Below are positions 41,747-63,921 of a stretch of 64,000 nt of DNA, piece after piece. The notes beneath the pieces were generated by a model. That model made no database searches and was not told where the DNA came from. It saw only the letters and a list, made by a program, of their open reading frames with translations. Source of the DNA: Actinomycetota bacterium (GTDB lineage: Bacteria > Actinomycetota > Actinomycetes > JACCUZ01); NCBI GenBank assembly GCA_030841035.1, contig JAVEDI010000038.1:35205-99204 (forward strand), read 5' to 3'. Every line of letters starts with the position of its first letter. The first letter of the stretch is position 1. Both the position numbers and the translations under genes were made by a program.

Positions 41747-42178
41747 TCAGCCGGCCGGGCTGCCGTCGCCGACGGCTTGCGCGAGCTGCTCGCGCAGAAC
41801 GCTCGGGATGGGGCGCGACGCGTGCGTGGCGGAGTCGAAGTTGACGTAGACGATGCTCGCCGTGGTGAGCAGCACGCCGTCCGAGCGGTGCACCTCGAAG
41901 CCGAGCTGAAAGCTGGACCGTCCCACCCGCAGGCAGTGCACGGCGATCTCGAGCCGGTCGTCGACGGTGGCCGGGCCGTTGAAGTCCGCCTCGACGTGCA
42001 CCAGGGACGGAACGAACCCTTCCTGTGCCATCGCGTCGAAGGTCCAGCCCCGGTCACCGAAGAACTCTCCCATCGCGACGTCGAAGAACTCCCAGTAGCG
42101 ACCGTTGAACACGATGCCTTGCGCGTCCATCTCGTGGTAGCGCACCTGGTGCCGGTACACAGACGTCCGGGGCGTCAT
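41747..42178 (-). CDS. acyl-CoA thioesterase (4HBT/YbgC hotdog family)
   Basis: VRYHEMDAQGIVFNGRY, VGRSSF. Confidence 0.88.
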   Translation of the reverse strand: MTPRTSVYRHQVRYHEMDAQGIVFNGRYWEFFDVAMGEFFGDRGWTFDAMAQEGFVPSLVHVEADFNGPATVDDRLEIAVHCLRVGRSSFQLGFEVHRSDGVLLTTASIVYVNFDSATHASRPIPSVLREQLAQAVGDGSPAG

Positions 42179-44283
42179 CGGGTTTCCCGTACAGCCGGTC
42201 GTGGCACCACCACGGCGTCGACCGCGACGACTCCGGTAGGAGTGGCGATGACGGGATTGAGGTCGACGGACTCGAGCAGCCCGGCATGGGCTGTGGCCAG
42301 CTGGTCGAGCCGCTCGATGACCTCGATGACGGCACCGAGGTCCACCGGGTCGGAGCCACGCGCACCCGCCAGCAGCGCATAGCCCCGTAGCTCCCGCAGC
42401 ATCTCGGCGGCCTCGCCGTCGCGCAGGCCTGCCGCCCGGATCACGACGTCGTCGAGGATCTCGGTCCAGATCCCACCGAGACCCACCAGGACGAACGCAC
42501 CGAGCTCGGCGTCGTTCTGGACACCTACGATCATCTCGACCCCCGCAGGGACCTGTTCTTGGACGAGCACGGGCCCGCCGCCGGCCACGCGCAGCGCCGC
42601 AGCGCGCACTGCCGCTGCGTCAGCCAGGCCCAGCGCGAGTGCGCCGGCCTCCGTCTTGTGCAGCAGGTGCGGGTCGGCGGACTTGACCGCCACGGGAAAC
42701 CCGAGCTTCTCCGCGATCTGCGCGGCGGCGGCGCCGTCTCGCGCGATTTCCGACCGGGCCACCGGGATGCCGAGGGCCGCGACCAGATCGAGGGCCGGCA
42801 GCCCGGAGGTGGCCGTGCCGGCCAATGCCGAGAGTGCTCCGGCGATCTCGGCCAGCGGTATCCGGTGCTCGGTGGCCGGAGACGGGAGCGGCCGGGAGAA
42901 GGTGACGAGCCGCTCCAGGGCACGCAGCCCTTCGTGCAGGCCGGAGAGAACCACCACGTCGCTTTCCAGCGCTCGCTCGACCTGCTCGGCCGGGGCGGTA
43001 CCACCCACGGCGTCGAGTACGACGTGCAGCGCGTCCGTCCGGTCGGCGAGCTCCAGCGCGGCGTGCAGCTGCGGCGTGGCCCGGTCCTCGGGTCCCGTCG
43101 GCCCGATGGTGAAGTCGCCGACACTCACGACGATGTCCACCTGCGGGTCCTCGGCCATGGCGGCGACCAGTTCGGGGTAGCGACGTTCGAGATCTTCGGT
43201 GCCCCAGTAGTCGAGGGGGTTGCTCGCCTCGAGGAACTCGGGCAACAGCTCGCGCAGGCGCTGCGAGGCCGCGGGGCCCAACGTGGGGAGCACGAGACCG
43301 GTGCTCGCGGCGTCGTCGAGCACGAGCTGGATCTGGCCGCCCGAGGCGGTCAGCGCCGCCATGTTCGGGCGCTGCGGTCGGCGCCGGGTCTGCATCGCGA
43401 CGGCTGTCTCGAGCAGCTCGTCCAGGGTGTCCACCCGCAGGACGCCGTGCCGGCGGAACCGCGCGTCGACCAGCCGGTCCGGCATGGCAAGCGCTCCCGA
43501 GTGGGCCACCGCCGCGGCACGGGCCGCCTCGGTCCGGCCGGACTTGACGACGATCACCGGCTTGCCGAGCTCGCGAGCCCGGTCGCACTCCCGGAAGAAC
43601 CGCTCCGGGTCGCGCACGGTCTCCAGGAAGGCGCAGACCACGCGCGTGTGCGGGTCGTCAACGAAGTAGCCGAGCAGGTCGGCACTGTCCACGACCGCCT
43701 CGTTGCCGCACGAGACGACGTGGCTCCACCGCACGCCGCGCTTGTTGTTGGTGAGCGCCGTCGCGACCGAACCGCTCTGCGCCATGAGTGCCACGGCGCC
43801 GGGCCGGGTCGCCTCGACACGGTCCATGTACAGCGCGTGCGGGTGGTGGAAGTTGATCAGGCCTTGGCAGTTCGGCCCGAGCAGGGCGACGTCCGCCGCG
43901 CGGGCCACCTCGGTGATGCGTGTCTGCAGGGCCTGCCCCTGCGGACCACCGTCAGCGAAGCCGATCGCGAGCACGACGACGCCCTTGACGCCCAGCGCGG
44001 CTGCCTCCTCCACCACCGGCAGAACCCGGTCACGTGTGACGCCCACGAAGATGGCGTCCGGCACGAAGGGCAGGGAGGAGAGGTCAGGTGCGCACGGGTA
44101 GCCGAGCACCTCGTCGTAGCGCGGGTTCACCGCACCGACCGGGCCGGCGAAGCCCATGGCAGCGAAGTTCTCGAGGGCTTGACGACTCCATGGGTTGCTC
44201 GGGCTCGCACCGACGACCGCGACCCCGGCGGGGGCGAACAACCTCTGCAACGACGCTGCCGACGTCGGGACCCGGCTAGGCAC
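42175..44283 (-). CDS. ADP-forming acyl-CoA synthetase (fused alpha/beta, ATP-grasp)
   Basis: AVVGAS, LGPNCQG, AQSG, SCGNEA, AHSGALA (phospho-His), NPLD, HKTEAG, DLNPV. Confidence 0.9.
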   Translation of the reverse strand: MPSRVPTSAASLQRLFAPAGVAVVGASPSNPWSRQALENFAAMGFAGPVGAVNPRYDEVLGYPCAPDLSSLPFVPDAIFVGVTRDRVLPVVEEAAALGVKGVVVLAIGFADGGPQGQALQTRITEVARAADVALLGPNCQGLINFHHPHALYMDRVEATRPGAVALMAQSGSVATALTNNKRGVRWSHVVSCGNEAVVDSADLLGYFVDDPHTRVVCAFLETVRDPERFFRECDRARELGKPVIVVKSGRTEAARAAAVAHSGALAMPDRLVDARFRRHGVLRVDTLDELLETAVAMQTRRRPQRPNMAALTASGGQIQLVLDDAASTGLVLPTLGPAASQRLRELLPEFLEASNPLDYWGTEDLERRYPELVAAMAEDPQVDIVVSVGDFTIGPTGPEDRATPQLHAALELADRTDALHVVLDAVGGTAPAEQVERALESDVVVLSGLHEGLRALERLVTFSRPLPSPATEHRIPLAEIAGALSALAGTATSGLPALDLVAALGIPVARSEIARDGAAAAQIAEKLGFPVAVKSADPHLLHKTEAGALALGLADAAAVRAAALRVAGGGPVLVQEQVPAGVEMIVGVQNDAELGAFVLVGLGGIWTEILDDVVIRAAGLRDGEAAEMLRELRGYALLAGARGSDPVDLGAVIEVIERLDQLATAHAGLLESVDLNPVIATPTGVVAVDAVVVPRPAVRETR

Positions 44284-45121
44284 GGTCGTCCACCTCTCGG
44301 AACTGCTGGTCCCGCCAGTCCAGGGCCGCGCGAAGTCCCCGCGCGGCCCGGATCTCCTCGAACTGCCGCAGCTCGTCGGTCTCGGAGCCGTCGAGGATCG
44401 CGACGAGGTTGTCGTGGTGGTTGAGGGCGTTGAGCAGGCCCATGATCTCGTAGGTGCGGTTGATGCCCTCCTTGGTCAGCTCGACCGCGAGCGGGGAGAC
44501 CTTGGCGATCAGGCGCGCGTGGTAGTAGGCGCGCCGCATGAGGTCTTCCGGCTCGACGACCTCGTTGACCATGCCGACCTCATAGGCCCGCTGGGCGTCG
44601 ATCGTCTTCCCGGTGTACAGCAGCTCCCGGGCGATCTTCATCGGCACGATCCACGGCATGATCAGGGTCGAGCCGGTGGAGAACCGGATCTCCGGCTCGC
44701 CGAGCCTGCAGTCGGAGCTGGCGATCGTCATGTCACACAGCATCGCTATCTCGCAACCGCCACCGAGGCAGTAGCCGTGGACCGCAGCGATGATCGGCTT
44801 GCGGAAGTTCCAGACCCGACGTGAGAACGGCCAGATGGACTCGAGGTGCCGCTTCCACTGCATGACGCTGCCCTGTTCGGGGTCGGAACCCGGCTGGATG
44901 TCGTAGCCGGCCGAGAAGGCGCGCCCTGCACCGCAGAGCACCACGGCGCGGACCTCGTCGTCGGCCTCGAGCCGGTCGAGTGCGTCGATGACCTCGCGTG
45001 CAAGCTGGGCGCTCAGGGCGTTGAGCTTCTCCGGGCGGTTCAGCTTGAGGGTCGCGATCGGGTAGTCGAGCTCGACCACGATCGTCTCGTACTGGTCGTC
45101 CTCCGGCGCCGTGGCGGTCAT
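44276..45121 (-). CDS. crotonase-superfamily enoyl-CoA hydratase/hydrolase
   Basis: LNRPEKLNAL, FSAGYDI, GYCLGGGCE, LGEPEIRF. Confidence 0.88.
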   Translation of the reverse strand: MTATAPEDDQYETIVVELDYPIATLKLNRPEKLNALSAQLAREVIDALDRLEADDEVRAVVLCGAGRAFSAGYDIQPGSDPEQGSVMQWKRHLESIWPFSRRVWNFRKPIIAAVHGYCLGGGCEIAMLCDMTIASSDCRLGEPEIRFSTGSTLIMPWIVPMKIARELLYTGKTIDAQRAYEVGMVNEVVEPEDLMRRAYYHARLIAKVSPLAVELTKEGINRTYEIMGLLNALNHHDNLVAILDGSETDELRQFEEIRAARGLRAALDWRDQQFREVDDRA

Positions 45122-45129
45122 CGTCGGCC

Positions 45130-46794
45130 TTACCTTCCTTCTGCTCGTGAGGGGACTGCTGGGGGTGGCAGCGTTCCGGCGACGACGGCCCCGTCGACCA
45201 AGGTCGCCGCGGGCGCCAGGCGGGGCAGCTCGGGAGCCGGCACGGTGCGGAGGTCCGTGTCGAAATACAGCAGGTCCGCCAGCTTGCCGGGCTCCACGGA
45301 GCCGATGAGGTGATCCATGGACAGCACCCCGGCAGGCGAGAGGGTGTGCGCACGCAAGGCCTCGTGGAAGGTGATCCGCTGGTCGGGGCCCACGACCAGC
45401 CCGTCGGGCGTCGTGCGAGCCATCGCCGACGACAGCGTTGCGAGCGGTCGGAAGTTCGAGACGAACGAGTCACTGGAGAGCACCGTCAGGATCTGACGAT
45501 CCAGCTCCGACCGCAGCGGCTGCAGCCCGTGCACCCGATCACCCAGGGTCCGGCACAGGTCGTCGCCGCTCTCGACCAGGAAGTTGGGCTGGTTGACCGG
45601 GACGATGCCCAGTGCGGCGATCCGGTCCTGCTGCGCTGCGGTCGGGTAGCCGCAGTGCTCGATGCGGTGCCGGTGCTGCGAGCCGGTTCGAGCGACGCCG
45701 TGCTCGATGGCCCTGAGGGCGTACTCGATGCCGAGGTCACCCTGGGCGTGGATGCCTACCTGCCACCCCTCCAGCATCGCCTCCCCGACGAGGTCCCTCA
45801 GCTGCTCGGGCTGCCAGAACAGCAGTCCCTTGGTGAGCGAGCCCTCGGCATAGCCGTCCCGGAACAGGGCCGTGCCGCTGGTGAGCGCTCCGTCGCAGTA
45901 GAACTTCATGGCGCCGATGCGCAACCGCTCGTCGCCGAACGGTCCCGTCATGCCGGCGTCGCGCAGTGCCGCGAGGTTGTTGGACAGGGGCATCGCCACG
46001 ACCCGCAGCCGCAACGCGTCCTCCCGTCGCGCGCCGAGATAGGTCGACAGCTCCCGGCGGGTCACCTGCGGATCGCACACCGTGGTGATGCCCGCGGCGA
46101 GGTAGGCGTCCATGCCGACCTCCAGCGCGTGTCGCAGCTCCTGGGGGGAGGCATCGAAGTGGAAGTTGGGCCCGTGGCAGCCGATGTCGACCGCACGTGG
46201 GAAGACGTGGTCCAGCGCGGCGTCCACGCAGTAGCCGGTGGGCTCCCCAGCCGCGTCACGGGCGAAGTAGCCGCCGTCGGGGTCGCGTCGCACCGCATCT
46301 CCGGCCAGGCGCAGCGCCACCGAGTTGACCACCGCGCTGTGGCCCGACTTGTGGAACACGATGACCGGGTGGTCGCTGCTCACCGCATCGAGGTCGGCTG
46401 CGCAGGGCAGCCGCTGCTGGGGGTACTTCGCGAAGTCCATCCCGTGCCCCCGCACCCATGACCCCGGTGGCTGCGCGAGGGTCGCCTCTCCCACTGCGGC
46501 GACGAGGTCGGTCATGCTGCGCACGCTTGGGAAGCCCGCGTCGACCCCGACCATCGCCTCGCCGGTCGCGAGCAGGTGGTTGTGGGGGTCCACGAAGCCT
46601 GGCACCAGGCAGCCGCCGGAGAGCTCGACGACCGACGGTGCCGCGCCCACCAGTCGAGCGAGGACCTCGGCTCGGGTTCCGACGGCGCGGATGCGGCCCT
46701 CGGCGATCGCCACCGTGTCTCCGGCAACGGCCTCGGTGTGCGGGGAGAGAACAGCGGCACCGGTCAGCACGAGCGTTCCCAGGCCGTCGCGCAA
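45130..46794 (-). CDS. amidohydrolase_3 (YtcJ/NfdA-like) metallo-amidohydrolase
   Basis: PGFVDPHNH, KFYCDGAL, HAQGD, RIEHC, SSDS, GKLADL; TTG 46794 with GGAGG upstream. Confidence 0.85.
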   Translation of the reverse strand: MRDGLGTLVLTGAAVLSPHTEAVAGDTVAIAEGRIRAVGTRAEVLARLVGAAPSVVELSGGCLVPGFVDPHNHLLATGEAMVGVDAGFPSVRSMTDLVAAVGEATLAQPPGSWVRGHGMDFAKYPQQRLPCAADLDAVSSDHPVIVFHKSGHSAVVNSVALRLAGDAVRRDPDGGYFARDAAGEPTGYCVDAALDHVFPRAVDIGCHGPNFHFDASPQELRHALEVGMDAYLAAGITTVCDPQVTRRELSTYLGARREDALRLRVVAMPLSNNLAALRDAGMTGPFGDERLRIGAMKFYCDGALTSGTALFRDGYAEGSLTKGLLFWQPEQLRDLVGEAMLEGWQVGIHAQGDLGIEYALRAIEHGVARTGSQHRHRIEHCGYPTAAQQDRIAALGIVPVNQPNFLVESGDDLCRTLGDRVHGLQPLRSELDRQILTVLSSDSFVSNFRPLATLSSAMARTTPDGLVVGPDQRITFHEALRAHTLSPAGVLSMDHLIGSVEPGKLADLLYFDTDLRTVPAPELPRLAPAATLVDGAVVAGTLPPPAVPSRAEGR

Positions 46795-46799: not shown

Positions 46800-47633
46800 T
46801 CAGCCCTCCCCGTGCAGCACCCGCTGCGCAAGCTCCCCCATGGTGGGGAACCAGACGCTCCCCAGAGCCTCCGCAGCGGCGACGACCTCGTCCAGCAGTC
46901 CCCGCCGCGACGGCCGGCCGACGAGCTGCGGGTGCAGTGTGAACACGGTCGTGCCTCCCAGCTCGTGGATCGCTCGCAGCTCGGCCGTCCACATCTCGGC
47001 GATCTGGCTGTTCGCGAGGAACTGGCGGTGGTTGGGAGGACTGCTCGCGAAGAGCAGGTGCGGCCCGTCGTCGAGCATCCAGTGCACCGGCAGCTCGGCC
47101 ACGCGGCCCTGTTCCGACTCGACCACGTAGGGGTGCACGGAGTCCATGTAGTTCGACGAGAACGTGCAGCCGATCTCCGCCAGCACGTCGCGGGTCTGCT
47201 CGGTCACGTCGTAGAGCGGGGCACGATAGCCACGGACCGCTGATCCGCTGATGTCCTCGAGCTTCTCCTTGAGCGTGCGCAGGTGTGCGAGCTCACCGTC
47301 ACGCAACCGGTCCCGCAGCGGGTTGTGGTCGTCGCCGTGCATGGCGATCTCGTGCCGCTGCCCAACGATGCGTGCGATCGCGCCGGGGTTCGCCTCCGCC
47401 ACGTCGGTCGGGACGAAGAAGGTCGTCCGGATCCCGTGCCGGTCAAGGGAGTCGAGCACGAGGTCCAGCCCCTGCCCGACGTCGTACGAGCCCGATGACA
47501 GCACCGCCGGTCGGTCGGCGTTGCGGGCGTCCTTCGACGTCCACATCGTGTGCCCGTCGAGGTCGAACGTCATGCAGACGGCGCTGCGCTGCCCCGCGGG
47601 GAACGTTCCCGCCGGCGCGTCTCCGAGCGTCAT
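46800..47633 (-). CDS. cytoplasmic CE4/NodB-fold hydrolase (PuuE/HpPgdA-like)
   Basis: TFDLDG, HEIAMHGDDH, GYRAP, LPVHWMLDD, TLHPQLVGRPSR; no signal peptide. Confidence 0.85.
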   Translation of the reverse strand: MTLGDAPAGTFPAGQRSAVCMTFDLDGHTMWTSKDARNADRPAVLSSGSYDVGQGLDLVLDSLDRHGIRTTFFVPTDVAEANPGAIARIVGQRHEIAMHGDDHNPLRDRLRDGELAHLRTLKEKLEDISGSAVRGYRAPLYDVTEQTRDVLAEIGCTFSSNYMDSVHPYVVESEQGRVAELPVHWMLDDGPHLLFASSPPNHRQFLANSQIAEMWTAELRAIHELGGTTVFTLHPQLVGRPSRRGLLDEVVAAAEALGSVWFPTMGELAQRVLHGEG

Positions 47634-47634: not shown

Positions 47635-48858
47635 TCATTGCCCTTCCTGCAGATATGCACGCGCCGAGTCCATGAGGATGTCGACCAGGGTCTCGAGCTC
47701 GCCGAGCTGCGCGTACTCGCTCTCGCCGCCCATCGTCGCCGGGTTCGGGCCGATGACGCAGGCGGGAATCCCGGCGTAGCGCCAGAGCCGCGCGTCGGTG
47801 CAGCCGAGACCGGTGGACAGCGGTGGGTGTTGGCCGGTGTGCCTGGTGACCGCATCGACGACCGCCGAGACGATCGCCGAGTCTCCGTCGGTCTGGTTGG
47901 CGGGCCCTCGTCCCAGCACCTCCACCGTGGCTGCGGCCCGCTCCGCCTCGGCGGCGACCAACGCGACGATCTCCTCGACCTCGATGGTCTTGGGGATGCG
48001 GAAGTCGAGGGTCAGCTCGCAGCTGCTCGGCTGGAGGTTGACGGCGTTGCCGCCGTGCACCGTGCCGACGTTCAGCGAGACCGACCGGGTGATGCCGGCG
48101 GCGCCGGCGCCCAGGTGCCTGTCCACGGCCTGGTCGGTGGCGACGTCGGGTGACGGTGCGCCGGCCACGCGAGCGTTGAGCTCACCCACCAGGTCCTGGA
48201 CCCGCCGCACCAGCGCGGCCATCCGCAGGATGGCGCCCTCGGTCTGGCTCGGGTACGCCGAGTGCAGGCTCTCGCCCTGGAAGCGCAGCTTGACCCAGAG
48301 GAAACCGCGTTCGGCCACCCGTACCAGGCCGAGCGAGGACGGCTCGGTGCTGACCAGCGCGTCGCCGAGCAGCCCCGGCTCACGGGTGAGGAGGCTGCGG
48401 GCGCCGAGCGGACCGAACGTCTCCTCGTCGCACACGAGGGTGAGCGTCAGGGACCCCGGCAGGTCACCGTGCTCGTGCAGCAGCCGCGCAGCGACGAGGA
48501 ACGCCGCCACACCGCCCTTCATGTCGACCGCGCCCCGCCCGTAGACGCGGCCGTGCTCGCTGCGGGCGGCAGGGAACTTCCCCGTGGCGGGGAACGTGTC
48601 GAGGTGCCCGTTCCAGACCAGGTGACGCCCTCGTGCGGAACGGGCGACCTCGATCACCAGGTTGCGACGCCTCGCTGCCGGTCGATGAACGACACACGAC
48701 AGGCCGGCCGCCTCGCAATAGCGCAGGACCACCTCTGCCACCTCGGTGACGTCACCGGGTGGGTTCGGGCTCGGCGCGGCGAGCAGCTGGAGCAGCAGAG
48801 ACTCCAGCTCAGCTCCCACGCCCCCGGCCGCAGGCTCCTCGCGGAGGCTTGCCGACAC
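47635..48858 (-). CDS. M20 family (ArgE/DapE-like) metallo-amidohydrolase
   Basis: WNGHLDT, GRGAVDMKGG, CDEE, STEP. Confidence 0.88.
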   Translation of the reverse strand: MSASLREEPAAGGVGAELESLLLQLLAAPSPNPPGDVTEVAEVVLRYCEAAGLSCVVHRPAARRRNLVIEVARSARGRHLVWNGHLDTFPATGKFPAARSEHGRVYGRGAVDMKGGVAAFLVAARLLHEHGDLPGSLTLTLVCDEETFGPLGARSLLTREPGLLGDALVSTEPSSLGLVRVAERGFLWVKLRFQGESLHSAYPSQTEGAILRMAALVRRVQDLVGELNARVAGAPSPDVATDQAVDRHLGAGAAGITRSVSLNVGTVHGGNAVNLQPSSCELTLDFRIPKTIEVEEIVALVAAEAERAAATVEVLGRGPANQTDGDSAIVSAVVDAVTRHTGQHPPLSTGLGCTDARLWRYAGIPACVIGPNPATMGGESEYAQLGELETLVDILMDSARAYLQEGQ

Positions 48859-50309: not shown

Positions 50310-50314
50310 TTCCC

Positions 50315-50899
50315 TCAACCTTCGAGTGGGCTGTCGGAGAGCGAATAGAAGTTGCGGCGCGCGTACACCAGCGGCTGCTTGCTGTCATCGGCGGCGCGCA
50401 CGCCGGCGACAGTTCCGAACAGGACGTCGTGGTCGCCGATCGTGACGATCTGCGAGACCCAGCAGTCGAAGTGCGCGATCGCGCCGTGCACCGACGGCGC
50501 CGCCGGGGCGGTCAGCCCGTCGTGCGGGTCCCACCGACGGTCGGTCACCGGCAGCGGGACACCACCCTCGGTCCACCACTCGCCCTCCGGGCTGAAGTGC
50601 TCCAGGAACTTCGGAGCACCCGGTGCCGCGGCGGCACGGGCGATGTGTACCTGGTCGGTGGCCAGCACCGAGATGCCCATCCGGCCCTGCAGCTTGGCGG
50701 CCTGGACAAGCGCCGTGTGCGAGAACAGGCAGACCGACACCGTGGGCGGGTCGAGAGCGACCGCGCTGAAGCTGGACGCGGTCACACCCCAGGGCCGGCC
50801 GCCGACGTAGGCGGTCACCACGACCACCGACGCCGGCATCCCGCCCAGAACCGCCCGCATGGTGCTGGCGAGATCTTCTGCAGTGTGGCTGTAACTCAT
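50315..50899 (-). CDS. flavin reductase (HpaC family)
   Basis: VVVVTA, GVTASSFSAVALDPP, GDHDVLFG, PLVYARRNF. Confidence 0.9.
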   Translation of the reverse strand: MSYSHTAEDLASTMRAVLGGMPASVVVVTAYVGGRPWGVTASSFSAVALDPPTVSVCLFSHTALVQAAKLQGRMGISVLATDQVHIARAAAAPGAPKFLEHFSPEGEWWTEGGVPLPVTDRRWDPHDGLTAPAAPSVHGAIAHFDCWVSQIVTIGDHDVLFGTVAGVRAADDSKQPLVYARRNFYSLSDSPLEG

Positions 50900-50905
50900 T
50901 TACTA

Positions 50906-50935
50906 ATACTGTTGTATCTGCCTCGCCAACGTCAA
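50906..50935 (-). promoter_or_regulatory. sigma-70-type promoter TTGACG-N18-CAGTAT, 6 nt before the ATG (leaderless), overlapped by inverted repeat ATAC-N4-GTAT
   Basis: -35 at 50935-50930, -10 at 50911-50906, IR at 50906-50917; AT-rich island in GC-rich DNA. Confidence 0.65.
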
Positions 50936-54656: not shown

Positions 54657-54698
54657 GGTGCGGTCGGATGGCGAGGATGGTCACCATCCGACCGCACC
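54657..54698 (-). terminator. perfect 15-bp stem-loop downstream of the substrate-binding protein gene (mRNA stabiliser or partial terminator)
   Basis: ggtgcggtcggatgg 54657-54671 / ccatccgaccgcacc 54684-54698. Confidence 0.65.
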
Positions 54699-54743
54699 GT
54701 GCCGTGGTCGACAGGGTTGTCATGCGTCCTGTCGGTCAGGCGA

Positions 54744-56929: not shown

Positions 56930-57149
56930 ACACGTCCCTCCTGGTCGGTCACGCCGTCTCCCCGACCGCGCCACGGTGGCGGCGAAGGGGCGCGCCGCCG
57001 GGCGCGGGCAGGGAACGTGACATCGGTCGAGCGGAACGAACCGGCCCGCGATCGGGCTCCGGTCGGTACCGTGCTGTCGTAGCGCCCACCCCGCCTGCGG
57101 GATAGAGCGCCACTCAAGTAAGTTCAGTGCGACTAAAACCGGTGTCAGC

Positions 57150-57179
57150 AAGTTAGGCCAGCGACTGCGCGCGTGTCAA
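57150..57179 (-). promoter_or_regulatory. consensus-like promoter TTGACA-N18-TAACTT for the ATC-hydrolase/ABC operon
   Basis: tgtcaa 57174-57179 and aagtta 57150-57155 on the + strand. Confidence 0.6.
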
Positions 57180-57211
57180 CGGACGTCCTGTAAACATCGA
57201 TCGCACGTTAC

Positions 57212-57232
57212 CGGCGATGTGTAACATCGCCG
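57212..57232. promoter_or_regulatory. perfect 9-bp inverted repeat right after the pucR-like stop (operator or terminator)
   Basis: cggcgatgt-gta-acatcgccg. Confidence 0.5.
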
Positions 57233-58798
57233 TCACAACGTCCCGGTCACCTGCGGGCCGGCGGCCATCCGCAGCGCGAGGTAGAGGTCGACGCGGTCCG
57301 CGGCCGACGCCAGGCTGCGCCCGGTCAGCCGCTCGATGGTGCGCAGCCGGTAGCGCAGGCTGTTCACGTGGATGGACAGCGCTACGGCGGCCGGCTTGTG
57401 CCGCCCGTTCGCCTCGAGAAAGACGTCGAGCGTGCGCACCAGGTGGGAGCCACGGCGCTGGTCGTAGGCGCGGACCCGGCCCAGCAGCAGGTCCTGGAAC
57501 GTCGCGGTGAGCGAGTCGTCCACGGCGAACAGGACGTGGTGCGACCCGAGGTCCTCGTAGTGGGCGACGCCCCGGCCGTGCTGGCGCCGGCGCGCGTAGC
57601 TGGCAGCCCGACGGGCACGCGTGACGGTGAGCTTGAGGTCGCTGTCCGCCGTCACGGCGCCCGCCCAGACGGGGCGGCGCAGCTGCTGCTCGGTGACCAC
57701 CTGCAGCTGCTCGGGCAGCCGGCGGTCCGGCTCGCGACCCGGGGCCGGCCCCTCGACACCCGGCCAGGAGAACACCACGGCCTCCTCCGTGCCCGGCACC
57801 ACGAGCCCGTGCCGACCGTGGGCGCCGAGCACCTGCAGGACGACGTCCACGAGTGCGTCGACCGCGCCCGAGGGAGCCGCCTCGTAGCCGAGCACCACCG
57901 TCTGCAGCGGTGCCTGCGGGCGCGTGGGCACGCGTCCCAGGCGCGCGTCCACCTCGTCAGCGGGCAGCAGGTCCGCCTCGACCAGCTCGAGGAACTCGCG
58001 CGCCCGCTGGCCGGTCTCGGCGGCCAGACGACGGTGGCGCGACAGCTCCACCCCGACGTAGCGGATGCTCTGCTCGAGCGTCGCGCGCTCGGCACGGGAC
58101 AAGGACCCGACAGGCTCGAGGTAGACGAGGAACGACGGCGCGGGCTCCTGCGCCGTGGCGAACACCGTCACCGCGGCCCCCTCGGCTCGCCTGACCTGTG
58201 CGGGATAGGCCGCCGCCCGGGCAGCCTGCTCCCAGACCGAGGCCAGCTCGGCGTGCCGCGGCTGCTCGCCGCTCGACCACGCCCGGGTGGGACCGGTGAG
58301 CACCCACAGGTCCCGGGTGAGCATCGAGCGCAGGGCCCGGACCACCTCGGACATCCCGCCGCTGCCCGTCGCCGCCGAGGACAAGGCCTCGTGGGTCGCG
58401 AGCGACCGACGCATGTCTGCCTGCCTCGCCTGCTCGACACCGTCGACGAACGCGCGGGCCACAGCGATGAACGGCAGCTCGTGCGGCACCTCGACGAGGG
58501 GCAGCCCGGTGGCGCGACAGGCGGCCACCACGTCGGCCGGTACCTCCGCGTCCGGTGCCGCAAGGCCGAAACCGAGTGCGTGGACGTCGGCCCCGGCAAG
58601 AGCGCTGACGAACCGCTCGGCGCTGTCCGGACCCTCGTGCCACAGCCCACCGGTCAGGATGAGCTCGCCGCCGCTGAGGTAGGCCGAGGGGTCGGGCAGA
58701 TCGGTCGAGTGCACCCACCGGATCTCGCGGTCGAGCTCTTCTCCGACCACGAATCGCAGGCCGAGGCCCGGCATGGCCACGAGCTCGCGGAGGTGCAC
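57233..58798 (-). CDS. PucR/CdaR-family transcriptional regulator
   Basis: N-terminal IRWVHSTDLPDP..YLSGGELILT; C-terminal HTH LSIHVNSLRYRLRTIERLTG. Confidence 0.93.
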   Translation of the reverse strand: MHLRELVAMPGLGLRFVVGEELDREIRWVHSTDLPDPSAYLSGGELILTGGLWHEGPDSAERFVSALAGADVHALGFGLAAPDAEVPADVVAACRATGLPLVEVPHELPFIAVARAFVDGVEQARQADMRRSLATHEALSSAATGSGGMSEVVRALRSMLTRDLWVLTGPTRAWSSGEQPRHAELASVWEQAARAAAYPAQVRRAEGAAVTVFATAQEPAPSFLVYLEPVGSLSRAERATLEQSIRYVGVELSRHRRLAAETGQRAREFLELVEADLLPADEVDARLGRVPTRPQAPLQTVVLGYEAAPSGAVDALVDVVLQVLGAHGRHGLVVPGTEEAVVFSWPGVEGPAPGREPDRRLPEQLQVVTEQQLRRPVWAGAVTADSDLKLTVTRARRAASYARRRQHGRGVAHYEDLGSHHVLFAVDDSLTATFQDLLLGRVRAYDQRRGSHLVRTLDVFLEANGRHKPAAVALSIHVNSLRYRLRTIERLTGRSLASAADRVDLYLALRMAAGPQVTGTL

Positions 58799-58889: not shown

Positions 58890-60527
58890 GTGGACCTGTC
58901 GTCGCCGGAACCGGAGGGCATCCGCATCCTGCGGGCCCGCCGCATCCGCACGATGCGCCCGGGTCCGGCATCGACAGGAGAAGCGCTGGCCGTGGCCGGT
59001 GACCGCGTCGTGGCCACCGGGTGGCTGGCCGACCTGCGCGACCGCTTCGGTGGATCGCAGGAGATCGACCTGGGTGACGGGTGCGTGGTGCCCGGCTTCG
59101 TCGATGCGCACCTGCACCTGACCATGGCGGCCCGGCACGCGGCAGGCGTGGACCTCTCACCCGACGTGGTGGCCGACGAGTCCGCCCTCGCCGGGGTGCT
59201 GCGGTCGGCGGCAGCTGCGGCGGCGACCGGCAGCTGGGTGACCGCCAGCCGCTACGACCACATGCGTACGACGGCAGGACGGATCCTCGACCGGGCCGCG
59301 CTGGACCGCATCGTCGCAGACCATCCCGTGCTGCTGGTGCACATCGGAGCGCACTGGGGGGTCGCGAACAGCAAGGCTCTCGAGCTCGCAGGCCTGTCCG
59401 ACGACACGCCGGACCCGCGTGGCGGCGCGCTCGGACGTGACAGCGCCGGCCGGCCCAACGGCGTGCTCTACGAGCAGGCACTCTTCGACCTCGCCTACCC
59501 GGCGCTGGCGCGGCGCGGCCGGATCGTCCCGGAGCCCGACCTCAGCCGCCTGCTCGTCGGGCTCGACACCGCGTCCGACGCCTTCCTCTCCGCAGGCATC
59601 ACCTCCGTCGGCGACGCGATGGTCGGCCGCGACGAGCTGCGGCTGCTGCAGCAGGCGCGGTCGCGCGGGCGGCTACGGCTGCGCGTGAACGCCCTGTTGA
59701 CCTACCCGCACCTGGAGCACCTGGTCGCGGCCGGCATCACCGACGGGTTCGGGGACGACTGGCTGCGGATCGGCGGCGTCAAGGCCTTCGTGGACGGCGC
59801 CGTCGCCGGCCGGACGTGCTGGGTGTCGGAGCCGTTCGAGGGGACCGACGACCACGGCATGACTGTCGTGGACTCAGACGAGCTGAACGAGCTGGTCGCC
59901 ACGGTGCACGCCGCGGGGCTGCGGGTCGCCGTCCACGCCAACGGCGACAAGGCGATCGAGCTGCTTCTCGACGCGGTGCAGGCCGCGCGGGACGCGTACC
60001 CGCAGATCGGCACCCGGCATCGCATCGAGCACTGCTCGATGGTCACCGACCGCATCGTGGCGCGCATCGCCGCTCTGCAGATGATCCCGGTGCCGTTCGC
60101 CGGCTACGTGCACTTCCACGGCGACACGCTCGAGGGCTGGTACGGCGCGCAGCGGCTGGAGCGCATGTTCGCGCACGGCGAGCTGCTCGCGGCCGGCATC
60201 CCGGTCGCCGGCTCCTCCGACTATCCGTGCGGGCCCTACGAGCCCTTGCTCGGGGTGCAGAGCTGTGTGACGCGGCGTTCGCGCTCCGGCCGGCTGCTCG
60301 GGCCGTCACAGCGCATCGACGTGGGGCAGGCGATGAGCCTGTTCGGCACCGGCGCCGCGTTCGCCGCGGGGGAGGAGTCGGTGAAGGGCCGACTCGCGCC
60401 GGGCTTTCTCGCCGATCTCGCCGTGCTCGACCGGGACCCCTTCGACGTGGCGCCGGACGAGATCGCCGCGATCGCAGTTCGCCAGACGTGGGTGGGCGGC
60501 CAGCCGGCCTGGAGGGCGGACGGGTGA
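58890..60527 (+). CDS. amidohydrolase_3 (YtcJ/NfdA-like) metallo-amidohydrolase
   Basis: PGFVDAHLH, KAFVDGAV, HANGD, RIEHC, SSDYP, GFLADLAVLD. Confidence 0.9.
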   Translation: MDLSSPEPEGIRILRARRIRTMRPGPASTGEALAVAGDRVVATGWLADLRDRFGGSQEIDLGDGCVVPGFVDAHLHLTMAARHAAGVDLSPDVVADESALAGVLRSAAAAAATGSWVTASRYDHMRTTAGRILDRAALDRIVADHPVLLVHIGAHWGVANSKALELAGLSDDTPDPRGGALGRDSAGRPNGVLYEQALFDLAYPALARRGRIVPEPDLSRLLVGLDTASDAFLSAGITSVGDAMVGRDELRLLQQARSRGRLRLRVNALLTYPHLEHLVAAGITDGFGDDWLRIGGVKAFVDGAVAGRTCWVSEPFEGTDDHGMTVVDSDELNELVATVHAAGLRVAVHANGDKAIELLLDAVQAARDAYPQIGTRHRIEHCSMVTDRIVARIAALQMIPVPFAGYVHFHGDTLEGWYGAQRLERMFAHGELLAAGIPVAGSSDYPCGPYEPLLGVQSCVTRRSRSGRLLGPSQRIDVGQAMSLFGTGAAFAAGEESVKGRLAPGFLADLAVLDRDPFDVAPDEIAAIAVRQTWVGGQPAWRADG

Positions 60528-60556: not shown

Positions 60557-61732
60557 GTGGAGCTTGCCGACAGGGCCGAGATGCGCTTCCCGGAGGAGGA
60601 GTACCAGCGCCGGTTGGTGACCTTCCGCGAGGCGCTCGCGGCCGAGGGCGTGGACGTCTACCTGGGCTCCCTGCCCGAGCACATGAACTACTTCACCGGG
60701 TTCGACCCCACCGGCCTGTACTTCTACCAGAAGCTGTTCCTGACGCCCGGCTCCGCGCCGCCGGTGCTGCTGACGCACAAGTGCGAGCAGCAGCTGGCAC
60801 GGGTCACGAGCTGGCTGGAGGACGTCCGTATCTGGACCCACGGGCAGGACCCCGTCGAGATCACCGTCGCGATCCTCACCGAGCTCGGTCTCGCCGGCGG
60901 CATGACCCTCGGACTCGAGATGGAGAGCTGGTACCTCAAGCCGGCCACCGTCAAGCGACTCGAGACAGCGTTCCCCGGCGTGCGCATCGTGGACGTGACG
61001 TGGATCGGGCAGGAGCAGCGCATGCGCAAGTCGCCGCTGGAGATCGCCTACATCCGGCAGGCGGCGCGTTTCGCCGACATCGGGATGGCTGCGGCGGTGG
61101 AGCAGCTGCGCCCCGGCGTACGCGAGCTCGACATCCACGCCGAGATCCAGCGCGCGCTGGCCACCGCGGGCAGCGAGTACCCCGCACTGCCCACGATCAT
61201 GGGGTCCGGTCCCCGCAGCGGCTTGTTCCACGCGTTGCCTTCGGAGCGAGTCGTCCAGGACGGCGACCCCGTCATGTTCGAGATCACCGGGTCACGGGCG
61301 CGGTACAACTCGAACATCGTGCGCACCCTCGTCGCCGGCGCGGCGAGCGACGAGCTCAAGACGTTGTGGGACGTGGTGACCGGCGCCTTCTGGGCCGGCT
61401 TCGAGATCACCAGGCCGGGGACGCCGGTCGGGGAGATCGACCGGGTGACCCGTGAGGCCCGCAAGGACTACGCAGACTTCATCCCGGCCCGCGCCGGCTT
61501 CGGCATGGAGCTGGCCTATCCACCTGTCTGGCTCGGGCGCCCCGACATCCTCGAGGGCGACGAGCACGTTCTCGAGCCGGGCATGGTGTTCTCCCTCGAG
61601 CCCTCGGTAGCCATGTACAGGGGCGTCTCCATGATCTTCGGCTTCAACATCCTCGTGACCATTGACGGCGCGGAGATCCTCCACCGGACCCCGGCGGACC
61701 TGTTCGAGGTCCGCTCGGGCCGCACGTCCTGA
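60557..61732 (+). CDS. M24-fold hydrolase, ectoine-hydrolase (DoeA/EutD)/creatinase-like
   Basis: MNYFTGFD, RMRKSPLEI, FHA, RYNSNIVRT, AGFGMELAYPPVW, LEPGMVFSLEP; AGAGGAG RBS before GTG 60557. Confidence 0.8.
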   Translation: MELADRAEMRFPEEEYQRRLVTFREALAAEGVDVYLGSLPEHMNYFTGFDPTGLYFYQKLFLTPGSAPPVLLTHKCEQQLARVTSWLEDVRIWTHGQDPVEITVAILTELGLAGGMTLGLEMESWYLKPATVKRLETAFPGVRIVDVTWIGQEQRMRKSPLEIAYIRQAARFADIGMAAAVEQLRPGVRELDIHAEIQRALATAGSEYPALPTIMGSGPRSGLFHALPSERVVQDGDPVMFEITGSRARYNSNIVRTLVAGAASDELKTLWDVVTGAFWAGFEITRPGTPVGEIDRVTREARKDYADFIPARAGFGMELAYPPVWLGRPDILEGDEHVLEPGMVFSLEPSVAMYRGVSMIFGFNILVTIDGAEILHRTPADLFEVRSGRTS

Positions 61733-61742: not shown

Positions 61743-62780
61743 ATGTCTTCGTCCAACGGCGGCTACGGCCTGCGCTTCATCGACTGCACGAGCACGTCCG
61801 GCGCCGACGGCTCCCGTGCGTTGGAGCGAGCCGGTGTGCATCCGGACGAGCTGCTCTCCTGCGAGGTGTTCTACGACGTCGCGCAGCTCGACGGCGCAGC
61901 GGCACGGGAGGTCGGCGAGCGGCTCGCGGCCGGATCGCGGCTGCCCGTCTCCGTCATCCCCACCTCGGTCGGGCTGCTCGGTGAGGGCCCGACGCGTGTG
62001 CAGGCGAGCGCCCTGCCGCCGGGTGCCACCGCCACCCGGGACGAGCAGGCGCGGTACTCGGTCTGCGGTCCCGTGGTTGCCACCCGGCTGATCGAGGCCC
62101 CCGCCGCGGGCGACATCGTCGACCAGTCGCACGCGATCCTGGGGGCCGCCCGCGCGTTGCTCGAGCAGACCGGGACCGGGCTCGATGACGTGGTGAAGTT
62201 CAACATCTTCTACAAGGGCGAGGGCACCGAGGAGGACTGGGCCCGCGCCGCGCGGGTCCGGGCCGCCTACTACACCGAGCCCGGCCCCGCGGCCACCGGC
62301 ATCCCGGTGCCACGCTTCGAGGACGACGCGGTGGACATCGCCATGCAGGTGCTCGCGATCCGCGGTGCGCGCGAGGTCCGTCGGCACTCATGGCCCGAGA
62401 ACCACTGGGACTGGCCCTTCCACCTGCCGTACAAGCACGGCTGCCGCGCCCAGGACGTGACGCTCATCGGTGGCCAGGTGCCTCTGGACGGCGCGGCGGG
62501 CGTGCTCGCGCCTGGTGACTTCGCCGGCCAGGTGCGGCACAGCCTGGCGTACATCGGCCGCGTCCTGCAGGACCTCGACGTGCCTCGGACGGCGGTGGAC
62601 CGGCTGACGGCGTTCGTCGCCATGGCGCCCGACAACGCCGCCGAGCGGCACGCGGCGCTGCGCGCCGAGGTCGACACCTTCTTCCAGGGCCACTCGCCGG
62701 CCCTCGTGCCGGTGCCGTTGCCCGTCCTCGCCTATCCCGGCATGGACGTCGAGATCGAGGTCCAGGCGCGGCTCAGCTGA
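61743..62780 (+). CDS. Rid/YjgF-family protein with tandem domains
   Basis: LDDVVKFNIFY...PAATGIPV; IGGQV...QVRHSL..I..VL...LAYPGMDVEIEV; GAGGAG RBS. Confidence 0.8.
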   Translation: MSSSNGGYGLRFIDCTSTSGADGSRALERAGVHPDELLSCEVFYDVAQLDGAAAREVGERLAAGSRLPVSVIPTSVGLLGEGPTRVQASALPPGATATRDEQARYSVCGPVVATRLIEAPAAGDIVDQSHAILGAARALLEQTGTGLDDVVKFNIFYKGEGTEEDWARAARVRAAYYTEPGPAATGIPVPRFEDDAVDIAMQVLAIRGAREVRRHSWPENHWDWPFHLPYKHGCRAQDVTLIGGQVPLDGAAGVLAPGDFAGQVRHSLAYIGRVLQDLDVPRTAVDRLTAFVAMAPDNAAERHAALRAEVDTFFQGHSPALVPVPLPVLAYPGMDVEIEVQARLS

Positions 62781-63921
62781 CGCGTCGCTCACGCGCACCG
62801 GCGAAGAAGCCCTGGTACAGGAGCTCGGTCGGCGGCGTCGAGCAGGGCGAGCCGTGCACGAGCAGCATGGTCTCGGCCTCGAGGTCCATCACGGTCGAGA
62901 TGACCGTCGTGAACTGCTCGAGGCGATGCGCCGACTCGGCGGGGTGACAGCAGACGCCGGCCGGCTCACCGGCATGGTCGGACAGCATCTCCAGCAGGCT
63001 CTTGGGCGTGGGGTCGCTGCGCTCGGCACGCAAGGTCGCGCGCGTCCGCTGCATGCGGAACGGGCTGTCGGGCATCAGCCAGATGCCTACGTCGACGGCG
63101 TCGAAACCCGGGTGCTCGAAGTGGTTGCCGTGCAGGAGCACACCACGCTCGTCGGGCTGGATCAGCCGCAGCTGGGAGAAGTCACCGGGCGCCGCCTCGA
63201 CGATGATGCCCAGGCCGCTGCGGTGGCCGATCACGTAGTTGGCGGAGGACGACCGCGGCGCTCGCTGCAGTGTGCCCAGCGCCTCGCTCGGGCTCGTCGC
63301 GTCGAGCATCGCCCGGAGCAGCACGTGGTAGGGCACGCCCGGCGTGCCCGTGTCCCTGTCGCTGACCAGCGCGTTGGTGGCGATGGCCACGCCGCTGGAG
63401 TTGAACCCGGTCTTGGCCAGCAACCCGGCCTCGACGACCGTGACGTACGCCGGCGCCTCGTCCTGCTCCGCCTCGAGCACGACGACGGTGTCGCGGGCAT
63501 GCAGGGTCCAGTCCCAGTTCTGCCCGACGAGCACCGGCCGCTCGGACGCGGGTGGCGGGACGATCGCGAAGCTGGTGCACTCCCCGACCCGCGGCAGGGT
63601 CGCGACCGCCGACCGAGCCTTCGCAGCGAACATGACCTCGGTGCGGACGTTGATGGCGAGGATGTCCTCGAAGGGCACGTCCGCGCCCTCGGCGATGCCG
63701 CGCATCTCCTCGAGGTAGCGCTCGTCGAAGGCGGCGACGGGCGCGAGGAACGTGCGGGCGTGCTCGACCACGGTGGGCCAGTCCCAGCCGGCGTAGTGCC
63801 CGAAGATCTCCGCGTACGCGTCGAGGCTGCCGCGGACCTGCCCCGCCACCTGCTCGCCGTACTGTCGTCCGCGGCTGCGCGCGTCGCCTCGGACCCGCAC
63901 GTGGGGAATCATCGGACTCAC
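62773..63921 (-). CDS. C45-family Ntn-hydrolase/acyltransferase (isopenicillin-N acyltransferase-like)
   Basis: RGRQYG, EEMRGIAEGA, INVRTE, ECTSF (autoproteolytic Cys), GQNWDW, GFNSSG, HGNH. Confidence 0.88.
   Translation of the reverse strand: MSPMIPHVRVRGDARSRGRQYGEQVAGQVRGSLDAYAEIFGHYAGWDWPTVVEHARTFLAPVAAFDERYLEEMRGIAEGADVPFEDILAINVRTEVMFAAKARSAVATLPRVGECTSFAIVPPPASERPVLVGQNWDWTLHARDTVVVLEAEQDEAPAYVTVVEAGLLAKTGFNSSGVAIATNALVSDRDTGTPGVPYHVLLRAMLDATSPSEALGTLQRAPRSSSANYVIGHRSGLGIIVEAAPGDFSQLRLIQPDERGVLLHGNHFEHPGFDAVDVGIWLMPDSPFRMQRTRATLRAERSDPTPKSLLEMLSDHAGEPAGVCCHPAESAHRLEQFTTVISTVMDLEAETMLLVHGSPCSTPPTELLYQGFFAGARERRVS

Follow-up and report, generated by a model that had tools for sequence, protein, structure and literature searches.

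Which compound does an uncultured soil actinomycete degrade with a gene set that places a two-component flavin monooxygenase among several predicted C-N hydrolases, an ATP-binding cassette (ABC) importer and a PucR-family regulator? The question is raised by positions 41747-63921 of a 64,000-nt stretch of DNA, below called the window, which corresponds to positions 35205-99204 of contig C19 (JAVEDI010000038.1) in a soil metagenome-assembled genome (MAG) of an Actinomycetota bacterium (GCA_030841035.1; 120 contigs, labelled G000). The original prediction for this locus had been a single pathway in which a flavin monooxygenase and amide hydrolases degrade an N-containing, probably heterocyclic substrate that could not be named. 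Our analyses support the core of this proposal, but not the assignment of all 19 genes to one pathway. We consider it probable that the locus encodes an uncharacterised, oxidative-hydrolytic and dioxygenase-independent pathway for a small N-heteroaromatic compound, and we likewise assign no substrate.

Because the window has a G+C content of ~72%, genes were called by third-position G+C (GC3 frame analysis), and families were assigned by Pfam and NCBIfam scans. These bear out the 19 genes counted earlier in 41747-63921, here numbered G1 to G19 from left to right, and every family named for them. None of the 19 proteins reaches an NCBIfam cut-off except with the PotA-subfamily and C45 'proenzyme' models, so that none of the enzymes can be equated with a characterised ortholog.

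Results

An HpaB-type oxygenase with an acidic residue at the histidine site

The oxygenase G7 (48870-50318, minus strand, 482 aa) belongs to the HpaB-type (group D) two-component flavin monooxygenases. HpaB_N (PF11794, 212 bits) and HpaB (PF03241, 132 bits) together cover its full length, and the gene of a flavin reductase, G8 (50315-50899, minus strand, 194 aa; Flavin_Reduct 99 bits), lies alongside, its stop overlapping the G7 start by 4 nt. The best solved relative of G7 is Thermus HpaB (2yyg, 215 bits). As genes of coenzyme A (CoA) metabolism adjoin, a reading of G7 as 4-hydroxybutyryl-CoA dehydratase (AbfD) was also considered; it was rejected on the score of 1u8v (89 bits versus 215 for 2yyg) and on the presence of a reductase partner. 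G7 stays below the HpaB equivalog cut-offs (TIGR02309, 247.4 versus 480.2; TIGR02310, 126.6 versus 885.2).

In the alignment with 2yyg, Arg100 and Tyr104 of the Thermus enzyme correspond to R105 and Y109 of G7, His142 to Asp151 and Ser197 to a valine. We take Arg100, Tyr104 and His142 of Thermus HpaB to be the triad that binds the phenol hydroxyl group, with His142 as a catalytic residue. This triad is incomplete in G7, where the histidine is replaced by Asp151. The pattern extends over the clade: all of 121 members have the Arg/Tyr pair, and at position 151 Asp is found in 106 of them and Ala in 12, but His never. At E<=1e-60 the clade comprises at least 449 proteins, all of them with generic names.

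HpaBs that are 37-41% identical to G7 sit in annotated pyridine clusters of vitamin-B6-like and nicotinate-like type. The B6-like set of Rhizobium daejeonense includes a pyridoxamine-pyruvate transaminase, a lactonase, a GMC oxidoreductase, two amidases and a 2,5-dihydroxypyridine dioxygenase. The nicotinate/maleamate-like sets of Peribacillus, Thioclava and Terrarubrum contain isochorismatases, an Asp/Glu racemase and a gene annotated 'leucyl aminopeptidase', which presumably resembles the NicX dioxygenase. These pyridine-cluster HpaBs carry Glu at the position of Thermus His142 and Leu at residue 109, versus Tyr in the G7 clade. Asp or Glu at the His142 site can hence be taken to mark an HpaB subfamily whose known contexts are N-heteroaromatic. 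A full-text literature search, outside which lay subscription journals and supplements, found no description of this gene set or of an HpaB-type hydroxypyridine or heterocycle monooxygenase; together with the missing equivalog scores, this agrees with the earlier view that the pathway is uncharacterised.

A smaller module recurs across phyla and plasmids

A metagenome scan with an alignment of six HpaBs yielded 56 loci, which together with three Streptosporangiaceae loci, a short Nonomuraea contig (L011) and an alphaproteobacterial MAG made up the 61 loci examined. A near-full HpaB of at least 40% identity was present in 49 of them; the 28 with at least 3 kb of flank were counted, and 21 were dropped for short flanks. 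Partners were recorded within 5 kb of HpaB, with families assigned by tblastn with queries from this analysis. A CE4 or PF04199 cyclase-type gene stands near HpaB in 24 of the 28 loci (CE4 in 13, cyclase in 11), a flavin reductase in 15, a Rid protein in 15 and an M20 deacylase in 14. The cyclase partners are arylformamidase-like (64 bits, below cut-off). Pot-like ABC parts were found in 7 loci and NCS1 permeases in 6. Amidohydro_3, agmatinase and C45 genes occur near HpaB in the three Streptosporangiaceae loci only, a crotonase gene in a single locus, and acyl-CoA synthetase, thioesterase and M24 genes in none of the 28.

Plasmids carry the module as well. On plasmid p1 of Aminobacter niigataensis DMFA1, genes for a LysR regulator, an HpaB (46%), CE4, an ArgE/DapE deacylase, a reductase and an amino-acid-type ABC importer sit between IS6 and Tn3 transposases. 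An Arthrobacter plasmid combines an allantoin-type permease, formate dehydrogenase, reductase, HpaB (41%), cyclase and Rid, flanked by two regulators that resemble an XRE-cupin gene of the island described below. The combination that keeps returning in many phyla, in metagenomes and on plasmids is an HpaB gene with a reductase and CE4 or cyclase, often with M20 and a Rid protein lacking the RidA arginine, and with a varying importer. Cultured strains with the orthologous cluster are Nonomuraea cavernae CGMCC 4.7368, Sphaerimonospora mesophila NBRC 14179, A. niigataensis DMFA1 and Arthrobacter sp. NicSoilE8.

In loci L048, L061 and L069, too, the HpaB module has a regulator similar to the XRE-cupin protein at its flank. 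The alphaproteobacterial contigs L013 (7671-15286), L055 and L056 hold two inverted copies of a triple-Rid, CE4 and HpaB set, which in L013, from a MAG, adjoins genes for a Rieske oxygenase, a SnoaL-like protein and a glyoxalase-fold protein.

Conserved core and lineage-specific parts of the locus

In a scan of one genome per species, close relatives of G7 were found in a same-genus MAG (95% identity), in Sphaerimonospora mesophila and three Nonomuraea (81-84%) and in an alphaproteobacterial MAG (49%). All three Streptosporangiaceae loci with full flanks have a 12-gene array in common with the window. In these, PucR is followed by the ATC_hydrolase protein, the solute-binding protein (SBP), PotB, PotC and PotA, then by a third Amidohydro_3 gene on the same strand and an agmatinase-type gene on the opposite one, both additional to the twelve, and then, again on the strand of PucR, by flavin reductase, HpaB, M20, CE4, Amidohydro_3 'a' and C45. 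Identities to the Streptosporangiaceae proteins amount to 67% for Amidohydro_3 'a' (G4), 47% for C45 (G19), whose gene there adjoins Amidohydro_3 'a', and 43-45% for PucR (G15). The same-genus genome encodes a 75% identical PucR, and in both lineages its gene is syntenic with those of G14 and the SBP.

The remaining genes are of narrower distribution. G1-G3, G12 and orthologs of G16, G17 and G18 were not found within 10 kb in the three Streptosporangiaceae loci. Orthologs of G16 and G17 occur in the same genus only, G1 stands beside HpaB genes only in the same-genus genome, and G18 is matched at E<=1e-20 in one of 400 other genomes sampled from the class, again the same-genus genome. By this comparison the CoA genes G1-G3, the M24 enzyme, the tandem Rid protein, the second Amidohydro_3 and the second reductase are not conserved beyond the genus, the reductase as judged by its absence from this position in the three Streptosporangiaceae loci. 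A co-conserved island acting as one pathway is thus not borne out, only 12 of the 19 genes being syntenic in Streptosporangiaceae. G16-G18, the second reductase and the CoA unit have a putative link to the pathway and may best be regarded as lineage-specific add-ons.

The same-genus genome, a sister species, holds both halves of the island and has three additional genes, for a third Amidohydro_3, an agmatinase and a crotonyl-CoA carboxylase/reductase (Ccr; 526 bits versus a cut-off of 379), the last of which precedes the crotonase-synthetase-thioesterase unit. In the relatives, the agmatinase gene (TIGR01230, 239 bits versus a cut-off of 174) is divergent from the reductase-HpaB operon. The window has 270 nt between G8 and G9 (50900-51169; the remnant reads on the plus strand). 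As tblastn and blastn against the sister species and an alignment of the upstream regions showed, the reductase-proximal part of this stretch encodes ~26 residues matching the agmatinase N-terminus; besides this 5' end, ~60 nt of the third Amidohydro_3 gene are left. Unitigs or contigs from three other soil runs bridge 50678-51398, and the junction is therefore not an assembly error. We hence conclude that a deletion of ~2.4 kb removed the agmatinase and the third Amidohydro_3 gene in the lineage of the window, and that the apparent gap is a relic rather than a spacer.

Elsewhere in the same genome, non-orthologous agmatinase paralogs are present. Contig C57 (65741-75416) carries one agmatinase-like gene (40%) together with paralogous PotA/B/C-like genes and an Amidohydro_3 gene (28-31% to three queries), and two further paralogs lie on contigs C116 and C24.

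Boundaries and origin of the island

The region is a true island of ~26.6 kb that reaches from window position 41744 to ~68300, 4.3 kb past the window end. Continuation beyond the window had been suspected, and three more island genes do follow (L001 1338-5312, window coordinates ~64030-68007), encoding the XRE-cupin regulator, an aldehyde dehydrogenase and a PucR-type regulator with GGDEF_2 and HTH_30 domains. They are succeeded by the downstream backbone with the housekeeping genes etfBA, cysteine desulfurase, mnmA, ligA and gatA. The upstream backbone comprises glgE, glgP, a glgX-like gene and genes for an enoyl-CoA hydratase, a methyltransferase and a hexapeptide transferase; G1, the left edge of the island, lies 3 nt from the stop of the last.

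In a comparison that includes the unpublished genome G024, four other genera of the family show the backbone glgE-(glgP)-glgX-enoyl-CoA hydratase-methyltransferase-hexapeptide transferase-etfBA, whole or in part. In all four, 0.3-6.4 kb separate the hexapeptide-transferase gene from etfB, versus 26.6 kb here, and none of the island genes is found in this interval. An ortholog of G7 was found in just one of 18 further genomes of the family, the same-genus one; this tally includes the unpublished G016, which has distant HpaB fragments only. HpaB is 81-84% identical to its Streptosporangiaceae counterparts, EtfA 68-70%. Searches of the window and of L001 gave no tRNA gene, the genes scanned include no integrase or transposase, and no notable repeat was found within window positions 41000-64000, a stretch that leaves the right island edge outside. 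From the distribution of the genes, not from marks of mobility, we infer a horizontally acquired catabolic island, which would be a mosaic around one conserved module.

Two observations concern the surrounding backbone. Directly upstream, 32329-39316 holds a glycogen/alpha-glucan set (glgE maltosyltransferase, a DUF3417-type glucan phosphorylase and a glgX/treX-like debranching enzyme) that is wholly or partly syntenic in three of the four other genera. In one relative (L103, G012:C5:290100-310093), ~16.6 kb lie between the methyltransferase and hexapeptide-transferase genes, a second variable site of this backbone.

Hydrolases and accessory enzymes

From G8 to G1, the genes form one tight array in which neighbours overlap or are separated by at most 11 nt. 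Next to G7 lies G6 (47635-48858, minus strand, 407 aa), by Pfam and NCBIfam an M20 deacylase of the ArgE/DapE type, an assignment on which a reading as AllC was rejected. G5 (46800-47633, minus strand, 277 aa; Pfam 56 bits) is a CE4 amidohydrolase with polysaccharide-deacetylase fold, the best solved relative of which is the uncharacterised protein 3rxz. The allantoinase PuuE was tried as an identity for G5 and discarded (38 bits versus a cut-off of 424.6). We propose that G5 acts after the monooxygenase as a ring or N-acyl amide hydrolase. Amidohydro_3 'a', G4 (45130-46794, minus strand, TTG start, 554 aa; Pfam 279 bits), is a YtcJ-like metal amidohydrolase, and here too the best solved relative, 3icj, is uncharacterised.

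The array ends with the CoA unit, all on the minus strand. G3 (44276-45121, 281 aa; ECH_1 160 bits) is a crotonase/enoyl-CoA hydratase. G2 (42175-44283, 702 aa) has the CoA_binding_2, Succ_CoA_lig and ATP-grasp_5 domains of an ADP-forming acyl-CoA synthetase, and its best NCBIfam matches are acetate-, 3-hydroxypropionate- and 4-hydroxybutyrate-CoA ligases, all below cut-off. G1 (41747-42178, 143 aa; 4HBT_2 53.9 bits) is a 4HBT/YbgC-type acyl-CoA thioesterase.

At the other end of the locus, three genes are transcribed divergently from PucR on the plus strand. G16 (58890-60527, 545 aa; Pfam 344 bits) is Amidohydro_3 'b'. G17 (60557-61732, 391 aa) is an M24 creatinase/DoeA-like hydrolase that matches DoeA with 113 bits and creatinase with 79.5 bits in the PDB and stays below the DoeA equivalogs (NF038259, 202.7 versus 575; TIGR02993, 151.5 versus 613). 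G18 (61743-62780, 345 aa) is a multi-domain, tandem Rid protein with PF01042 (74 bits) in two stretches. Aligned to PH0854, its domain 2 reads 'PAA' at the site of the RidA arginine, which we take to be the active-site residue Arg105 of the E. coli protein; the C-terminal domain appears by eye, without an alignment, to read 'PAL'. Among the Rid partners of the HpaB clade, those with listed C-terminal sequences (16 rows, two of them identical, plus the Arthrobacter plasmid protein) have P-x-G-T at this site and lack the arginine, and they have a W-D-W motif in common with G18. The C45 autoproteolytic Ntn acyltransferase/hydrolase G19 (62773-63921, minus strand, 382 aa) follows, with NF040521 at 262 versus a cut-off of 85 bits.

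Importer and a putative sensor

The importer genes lie upstream of the relic on the minus strand. They encode an ABC ATPase of the PotA subfamily (G9, 51170-52270, 366 aa), a PotC-like permease (G10, 52270-53076, 268 aa), a PotB-like permease (G11, 53066-53980, 304 aa) and the SBP (G13, 54744-55826, 360 aa; SBP_bac_8 121 bits), with flavin reductase 2 (G12, 53977-54723, 248 aa; Flavin_Reduct 72 bits) inserted between SBP and permease genes. Among the Pot importer equivalogs, the PotA-subfamily model alone is passed (TIGR01187, 358.4 versus 355.6), while PotD scores 39.6 versus 582. The nearest PDB entries to G13 are binders of 4-aminobutyrate (GABA; 6dgv, 207 bits; 4eq7, 195 bits), followed by an agropine binder (6hly, 156 bits), with PotD at 38 bits. 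G13 hence appears to belong to the GABA/opine-binding branch of the PotD/F-like proteins.

G14 (55934-56929, minus strand) lies between PucR and the importer, a place kept both in the Streptosporangiaceae and in the same genus. Its start was moved to the ATG at 56929, which has an AGGAGG ribosome-binding site and is most likely the true one; this gives 331 aa, like the homologs, instead of 405. The protein passes the PF14196 (ATC_hydrolase) gathering score weakly (33.0 versus 28.1 bits), and with its C-terminal domain only. Its top ESM Atlas cluster is likewise ATC_hydrolase (0.90), and the family is rare, with 153 representatives among 1.84 billion proteins. The AF2 model (pLDDT 94.8) has two tandem domains. 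Fold matches are the phenol sensor DmpR (Z 7.9), PoxR (Z 7.5), Bet3, H-NOX and a V4R protein, with Z values of 5.5-7.9; all being below 8, they are a consistent lead, not proof. No hydrolase fold is among the top Foldseek/VIA matches to the model. G14, modelled as tandem V4R/Bet3/H-NOX-like domains, may therefore be a sensor rather than a hydrolase. The families of the seven C-N hydrolases counted in the original prediction are confirmed, yet G14 owes its place among them to the family name only, and with a sensor-like G14 the count becomes six.

Transcription units and candidate regulatory elements

Gene spacing, the sole basis here, makes six transcription units likely (G15; G14; G13-G9; G8-G1; G16-G18; G19), where the original prediction had counted about five. 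The PucR-family regulator G15 (57233-58798, minus strand, 521 aa) has an N-terminal PucR domain (93.6 bits) and a C-terminal HTH_30 domain (67.3 bits) and reaches no NCBIfam equivalog. A scan for consensus promoters and terminators gave one promoter-like site versus 0.8 expected and nothing above shuffled sequence. Comparison of the intergenic regions for common operator motifs returned two shared 9-11-mers. These were rejected as evidence of co-regulation, since by our estimate ~0.9 shared 9-mers would arise by chance for each pair at this G+C content, and the genome contains 153 copies of the 9-mer in question; a significant operator motif common to the units was not found in this comparison.

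Footprinting against the same-genus genome revealed conserved stretches upstream of G14 and of PucR, although in two such close genomes constraint is not separable from descent. The ~300 nt upstream of the revised G14 start (56930-57232) contain a perfect 6-3-6 palindrome, CGATGT-TAC-ACATCG, as well as a GGACGTCC palindrome and a TTGACA box, the latter two of which are kept in the same-genus genome. The palindromes and the box are candidate operator and promoter elements.

Discussion

We favour, as the probable reading of this island, a pathway that attacks a small N-heteroaromatic ring with a flavin monooxygenase and opens the product by hydrolysis. The importer would take up a small polar N-heteroaromatic compound, hydroxypyridine/pyridone-, pyrimidone- or imidazole-like. 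G7 with its reductase G8 might then hydroxylate the ring next to its nitrogen or cleave it oxidatively, with Asp151 binding the ring N-H or an amino group. Opening and deacylation of the resulting lactam, imide or N-acyl enamine could proceed without a dioxygenase through the successive action of CE4, M20 and Amidohydro_3 'a'; ammonia, a central metabolite and either formate or a different acyl group would be set free. Expression may be under the control of PucR, perhaps assisted by the V4R-like G14 and the XRE-cupin regulator. In agreement with the dioxygenase-independent route, Pfam scans detected no ring-cleavage dioxygenase among the island genes or just beyond the island. An N-formyl intermediate would fit the formate dehydrogenase beside the Arthrobacter module as well as the formamidase-like cyclases.

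Several points weigh against this reading. It rests on the sequence of an uncultured soil MAG, with the substrate unnamed. Retention of R105 and Y109 is compatible with a phenolic substrate, and the GABA/opine-like G13 would be as appropriate for an amino-acid-like or guanidino acid as for a heterocycle. The agmatinase of the relatives points to a guanidino group, which a simple pyridine model leaves unexplained. As the Rid proteins lack the RidA arginine, an imine-deaminase role is uncertain for them. The higher conservation of HpaB over EtfA may reflect constraint and not transfer. Regarding the recurrent module, the 28 loci do not count as independent (L059 nearly duplicates L060; L013, L055 and L056 are close kin), assignment by tblastn misses divergent partners, and the M20 partners fall into two subfamilies.

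The agmatinase leads to the main rival explanation, which is really a variant of the same mechanism: catabolism of a guanidino compound or of a cyclic guanidine or ureide, with, for example, 2-aminoimidazole, a creatinine-like ring, 4-guanidinobutyrate or imidazole-4-acetate as substrate. Oxidation of the five-membered ring by HpaB would yield an imidazolone, to be opened by the ATC_hydrolase-like protein or by CE4. M20 would then cleave off a carbamoyl or formyl group, and urea or formamide would be set free by an enzyme of the arginase family or a creatinase-like one. Besides the agmatinase-type ureohydrolase of the relatives (TIGR01230, 239 versus 174), of which a relic is left here, the M24 enzyme is related to creatinase and DoeA, the only named ATC_hydrolase member opens a cyclic isothiourea according to the Pfam description, and 6 of the 28 loci combine the module with an NCS1 permease, a type of transporter from the hydantoin/allantoin/cytosine family. 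The GABA-type binding protein also fits, as guanidino acids and imidazole-acetate mimic GABA. However, agmatinase, ATC_hydrolase and M24 are absent from the 25 loci outside the Streptosporangiaceae, the agmatinase was lost here while the rest was kept, the nearest annotated HpaB contexts are pyridine rather than imidazole or guanidine clusters, and the G14 fold is sensor-like. We therefore judge this variant rather unlikely. Catabolism of phenolic amides or amines, such as hydroxycinnamoyl-agmatine or -polyamine conjugates or tyramine derivatives, would likewise account for the agmatinase, with Pot-type import, amide hydrolysis, ortho-hydroxylation of the phenol by HpaB and shortening of the hydroxycinnamate side chain by CoA ligase, crotonase and thioesterase. 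HpaB family membership with the Arg/Tyr pair in 121 of 121 proteins, the Pot-like ABC parts and a sub-threshold match of the crotonase to p-hydroxycinnamoyl-CoA hydratase/lyase (144 versus a cut-off of 276) speak for it. Yet the clade has an acidic residue instead of the histidine, neither the island nor the stretch just beyond it shows a catechol ring-cleavage dioxygenase, PotD is a distant match to the binding protein (39.6 versus 582), and the CoA genes are not co-conserved with HpaB (synthetase 0, thioesterase 0 and enoyl-CoA hydratase 1 of 28 loci) and stand with Ccr in the sister species, so that a phenolamide substrate seems improbable to us.

It might also be asked whether there is a common pathway at all, or whether unrelated units (importer with PucR; HpaB operon; CoA unit; G16-G18 with C45) accreted at an insertion hotspot. 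The site is indeed variable, relatives having 0.3-6.4 kb there that differ in content. Of the 19 genes, 7 show no conservation beyond the genus, deletion and insertion are evident inside the array, and no significant operator motif common to the units was found. Such an accretion would nevertheless hardly explain that in three Streptosporangiaceae, despite an EtfA identity of only 68-70%, the genes for importer, PucR, G14, HpaB, hydrolases and C45 follow one another in the same order on one strand, or that HpaB with hydrolase and importer recurs in other phyla with differing importer types; we give it little credence. A biosynthetic role, in which the hydroxylase and hydrolases modify a secondary metabolite or siderophore, would suit the natural-product tailoring known for HpaB-family enzymes and the annotation of one plasmid homolog as 'siderophore biosynthesis-related protein'. 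We regard it as very improbable: the genes scanned include no nonribosomal peptide synthetase, polyketide synthase or other scaffold-forming gene, the clusters contain importers (SBP-dependent ABC, NCS1, SSF) and not exporters, and the module lies on transposon-flanked plasmid segments.

The favoured pathway for an N-heteroaromatic compound has counterparts among characterised systems. The E. coli Rut system for pyrimidines (RutA-G) manages without a dioxygenase: a two-component flavin monooxygenase, served by a dedicated reductase, is followed by an amide hydrolase and a Rid-family protein. The island resembles it in flavin monooxygenase and reductase, amide hydrolase, Rid and, as proposed, the release of nitrogen from a heterocycle without a dioxygenase. 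In contrast, its oxygenase is HpaB-type and RutA luciferase-like, and its Rid protein lacks the RidA arginine; neither a luciferase-like RutA nor an isochorismatase-type RutB is among the 19 proteins by Pfam, and the best island scores with the RutC (36.6 versus 169.1) and RutF (59.8 versus 254.75) models are below cut-off. In Arthrobacter pyridine (pyr) and Rhodococcus tetramethylpyrazine (tpd) degradation, a two-component flavin monooxygenase cleaves the N-heteroaromatic ring to an N-acyl enamide, on which amidohydrolases then act. These systems are actinobacterial and follow the same logic, but their oxygenases are luciferase-like and their hydrolase families differ. The vitamin B6 route, with MHPC oxygenase and acetamidomethylenesuccinate hydrolase, and the maleamate route of nicotinate are pathways for pyridine rings. 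There too, flavin-dependent attack on a hydroxylated N-heteroaromatic ring is followed by hydrolysis of an N-acyl product, and the 37-41% identical HpaBs stand with reductases and amidases and have an acidic residue at the His142 site as in G7. These pyridine clusters have a 2,5-dihydroxypyridine dioxygenase, isochorismatase-type amidases and a maleate-isomerase-like protein, whereas the island has none of these and instead CE4, M20 and Amidohydro_3.

HpaBC of Thermus thermophilus (2yyg) and E. coli has the fold, domains, separate reductase and Arg/Tyr pair of G7; the match is 215 bits only, however, with His142 changed to Asp and Ser197 to Val, and the island lacks a downstream meta-cleavage pathway. 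Pseudomonas AtcB and AtcC convert 2-aminothiazoline-4-carboxylate to cysteine and pair an ATC_hydrolase-family member with an M20 amidohydrolase in one cluster, as here. G14 differs in its tandem domains, its 33-bit match and its predicted V4R/H-NOX-like fold, and the M20 enzyme of the island is of the ArgE/DapE type. Taken together, the island appears to follow the logic of Rut, pyr and tpd with an HpaB fold and different hydrolases.

A broader proposal, which we put forward tentatively, is that the G7 clade, together with a Rid subfamily marked by W-D-W and the missing arginine, a CE4 or arylformamidase-like hydrolase and M20, constitutes a widespread and so far undescribed aerobic route of N-heterocycle cleavage that is independent of dioxygenases, an analogue of Rut on another monooxygenase fold. 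It would reach from marine Alphaproteobacteria to soil Actinomycetota and move on plasmids. Its substrate could be a uracil- or barbiturate-like pyrimidone, a pyridone such as 2,6-dihydroxypyridine, pyrrole-2-carboxylate or an imidazole.

To our knowledge, the known openers of N-heterocycles that combine a flavin monooxygenase with an amide hydrolase, Rut, pyr and tpd, all use luciferase-like oxygenases. Here a subfamily of the HpaB fold appears to take the ring-opening role, and the few partner families found with it are the same in metagenomes from soil and other environments and on conjugative plasmids. The island also illustrates how a module is built up and trimmed within one lineage, where accessory hydrolases were gained and the agmatinase branch was lost. 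Once the substrate is named, hundreds of genes for 'aromatic ring hydroxylases' could be annotated, and genes might be found for a biochemically known activity such as pyrrole-2-carboxylate monooxygenase. Insight would also be gained into the recycling of heterocyclic organic nitrogen in soil and in the sea.

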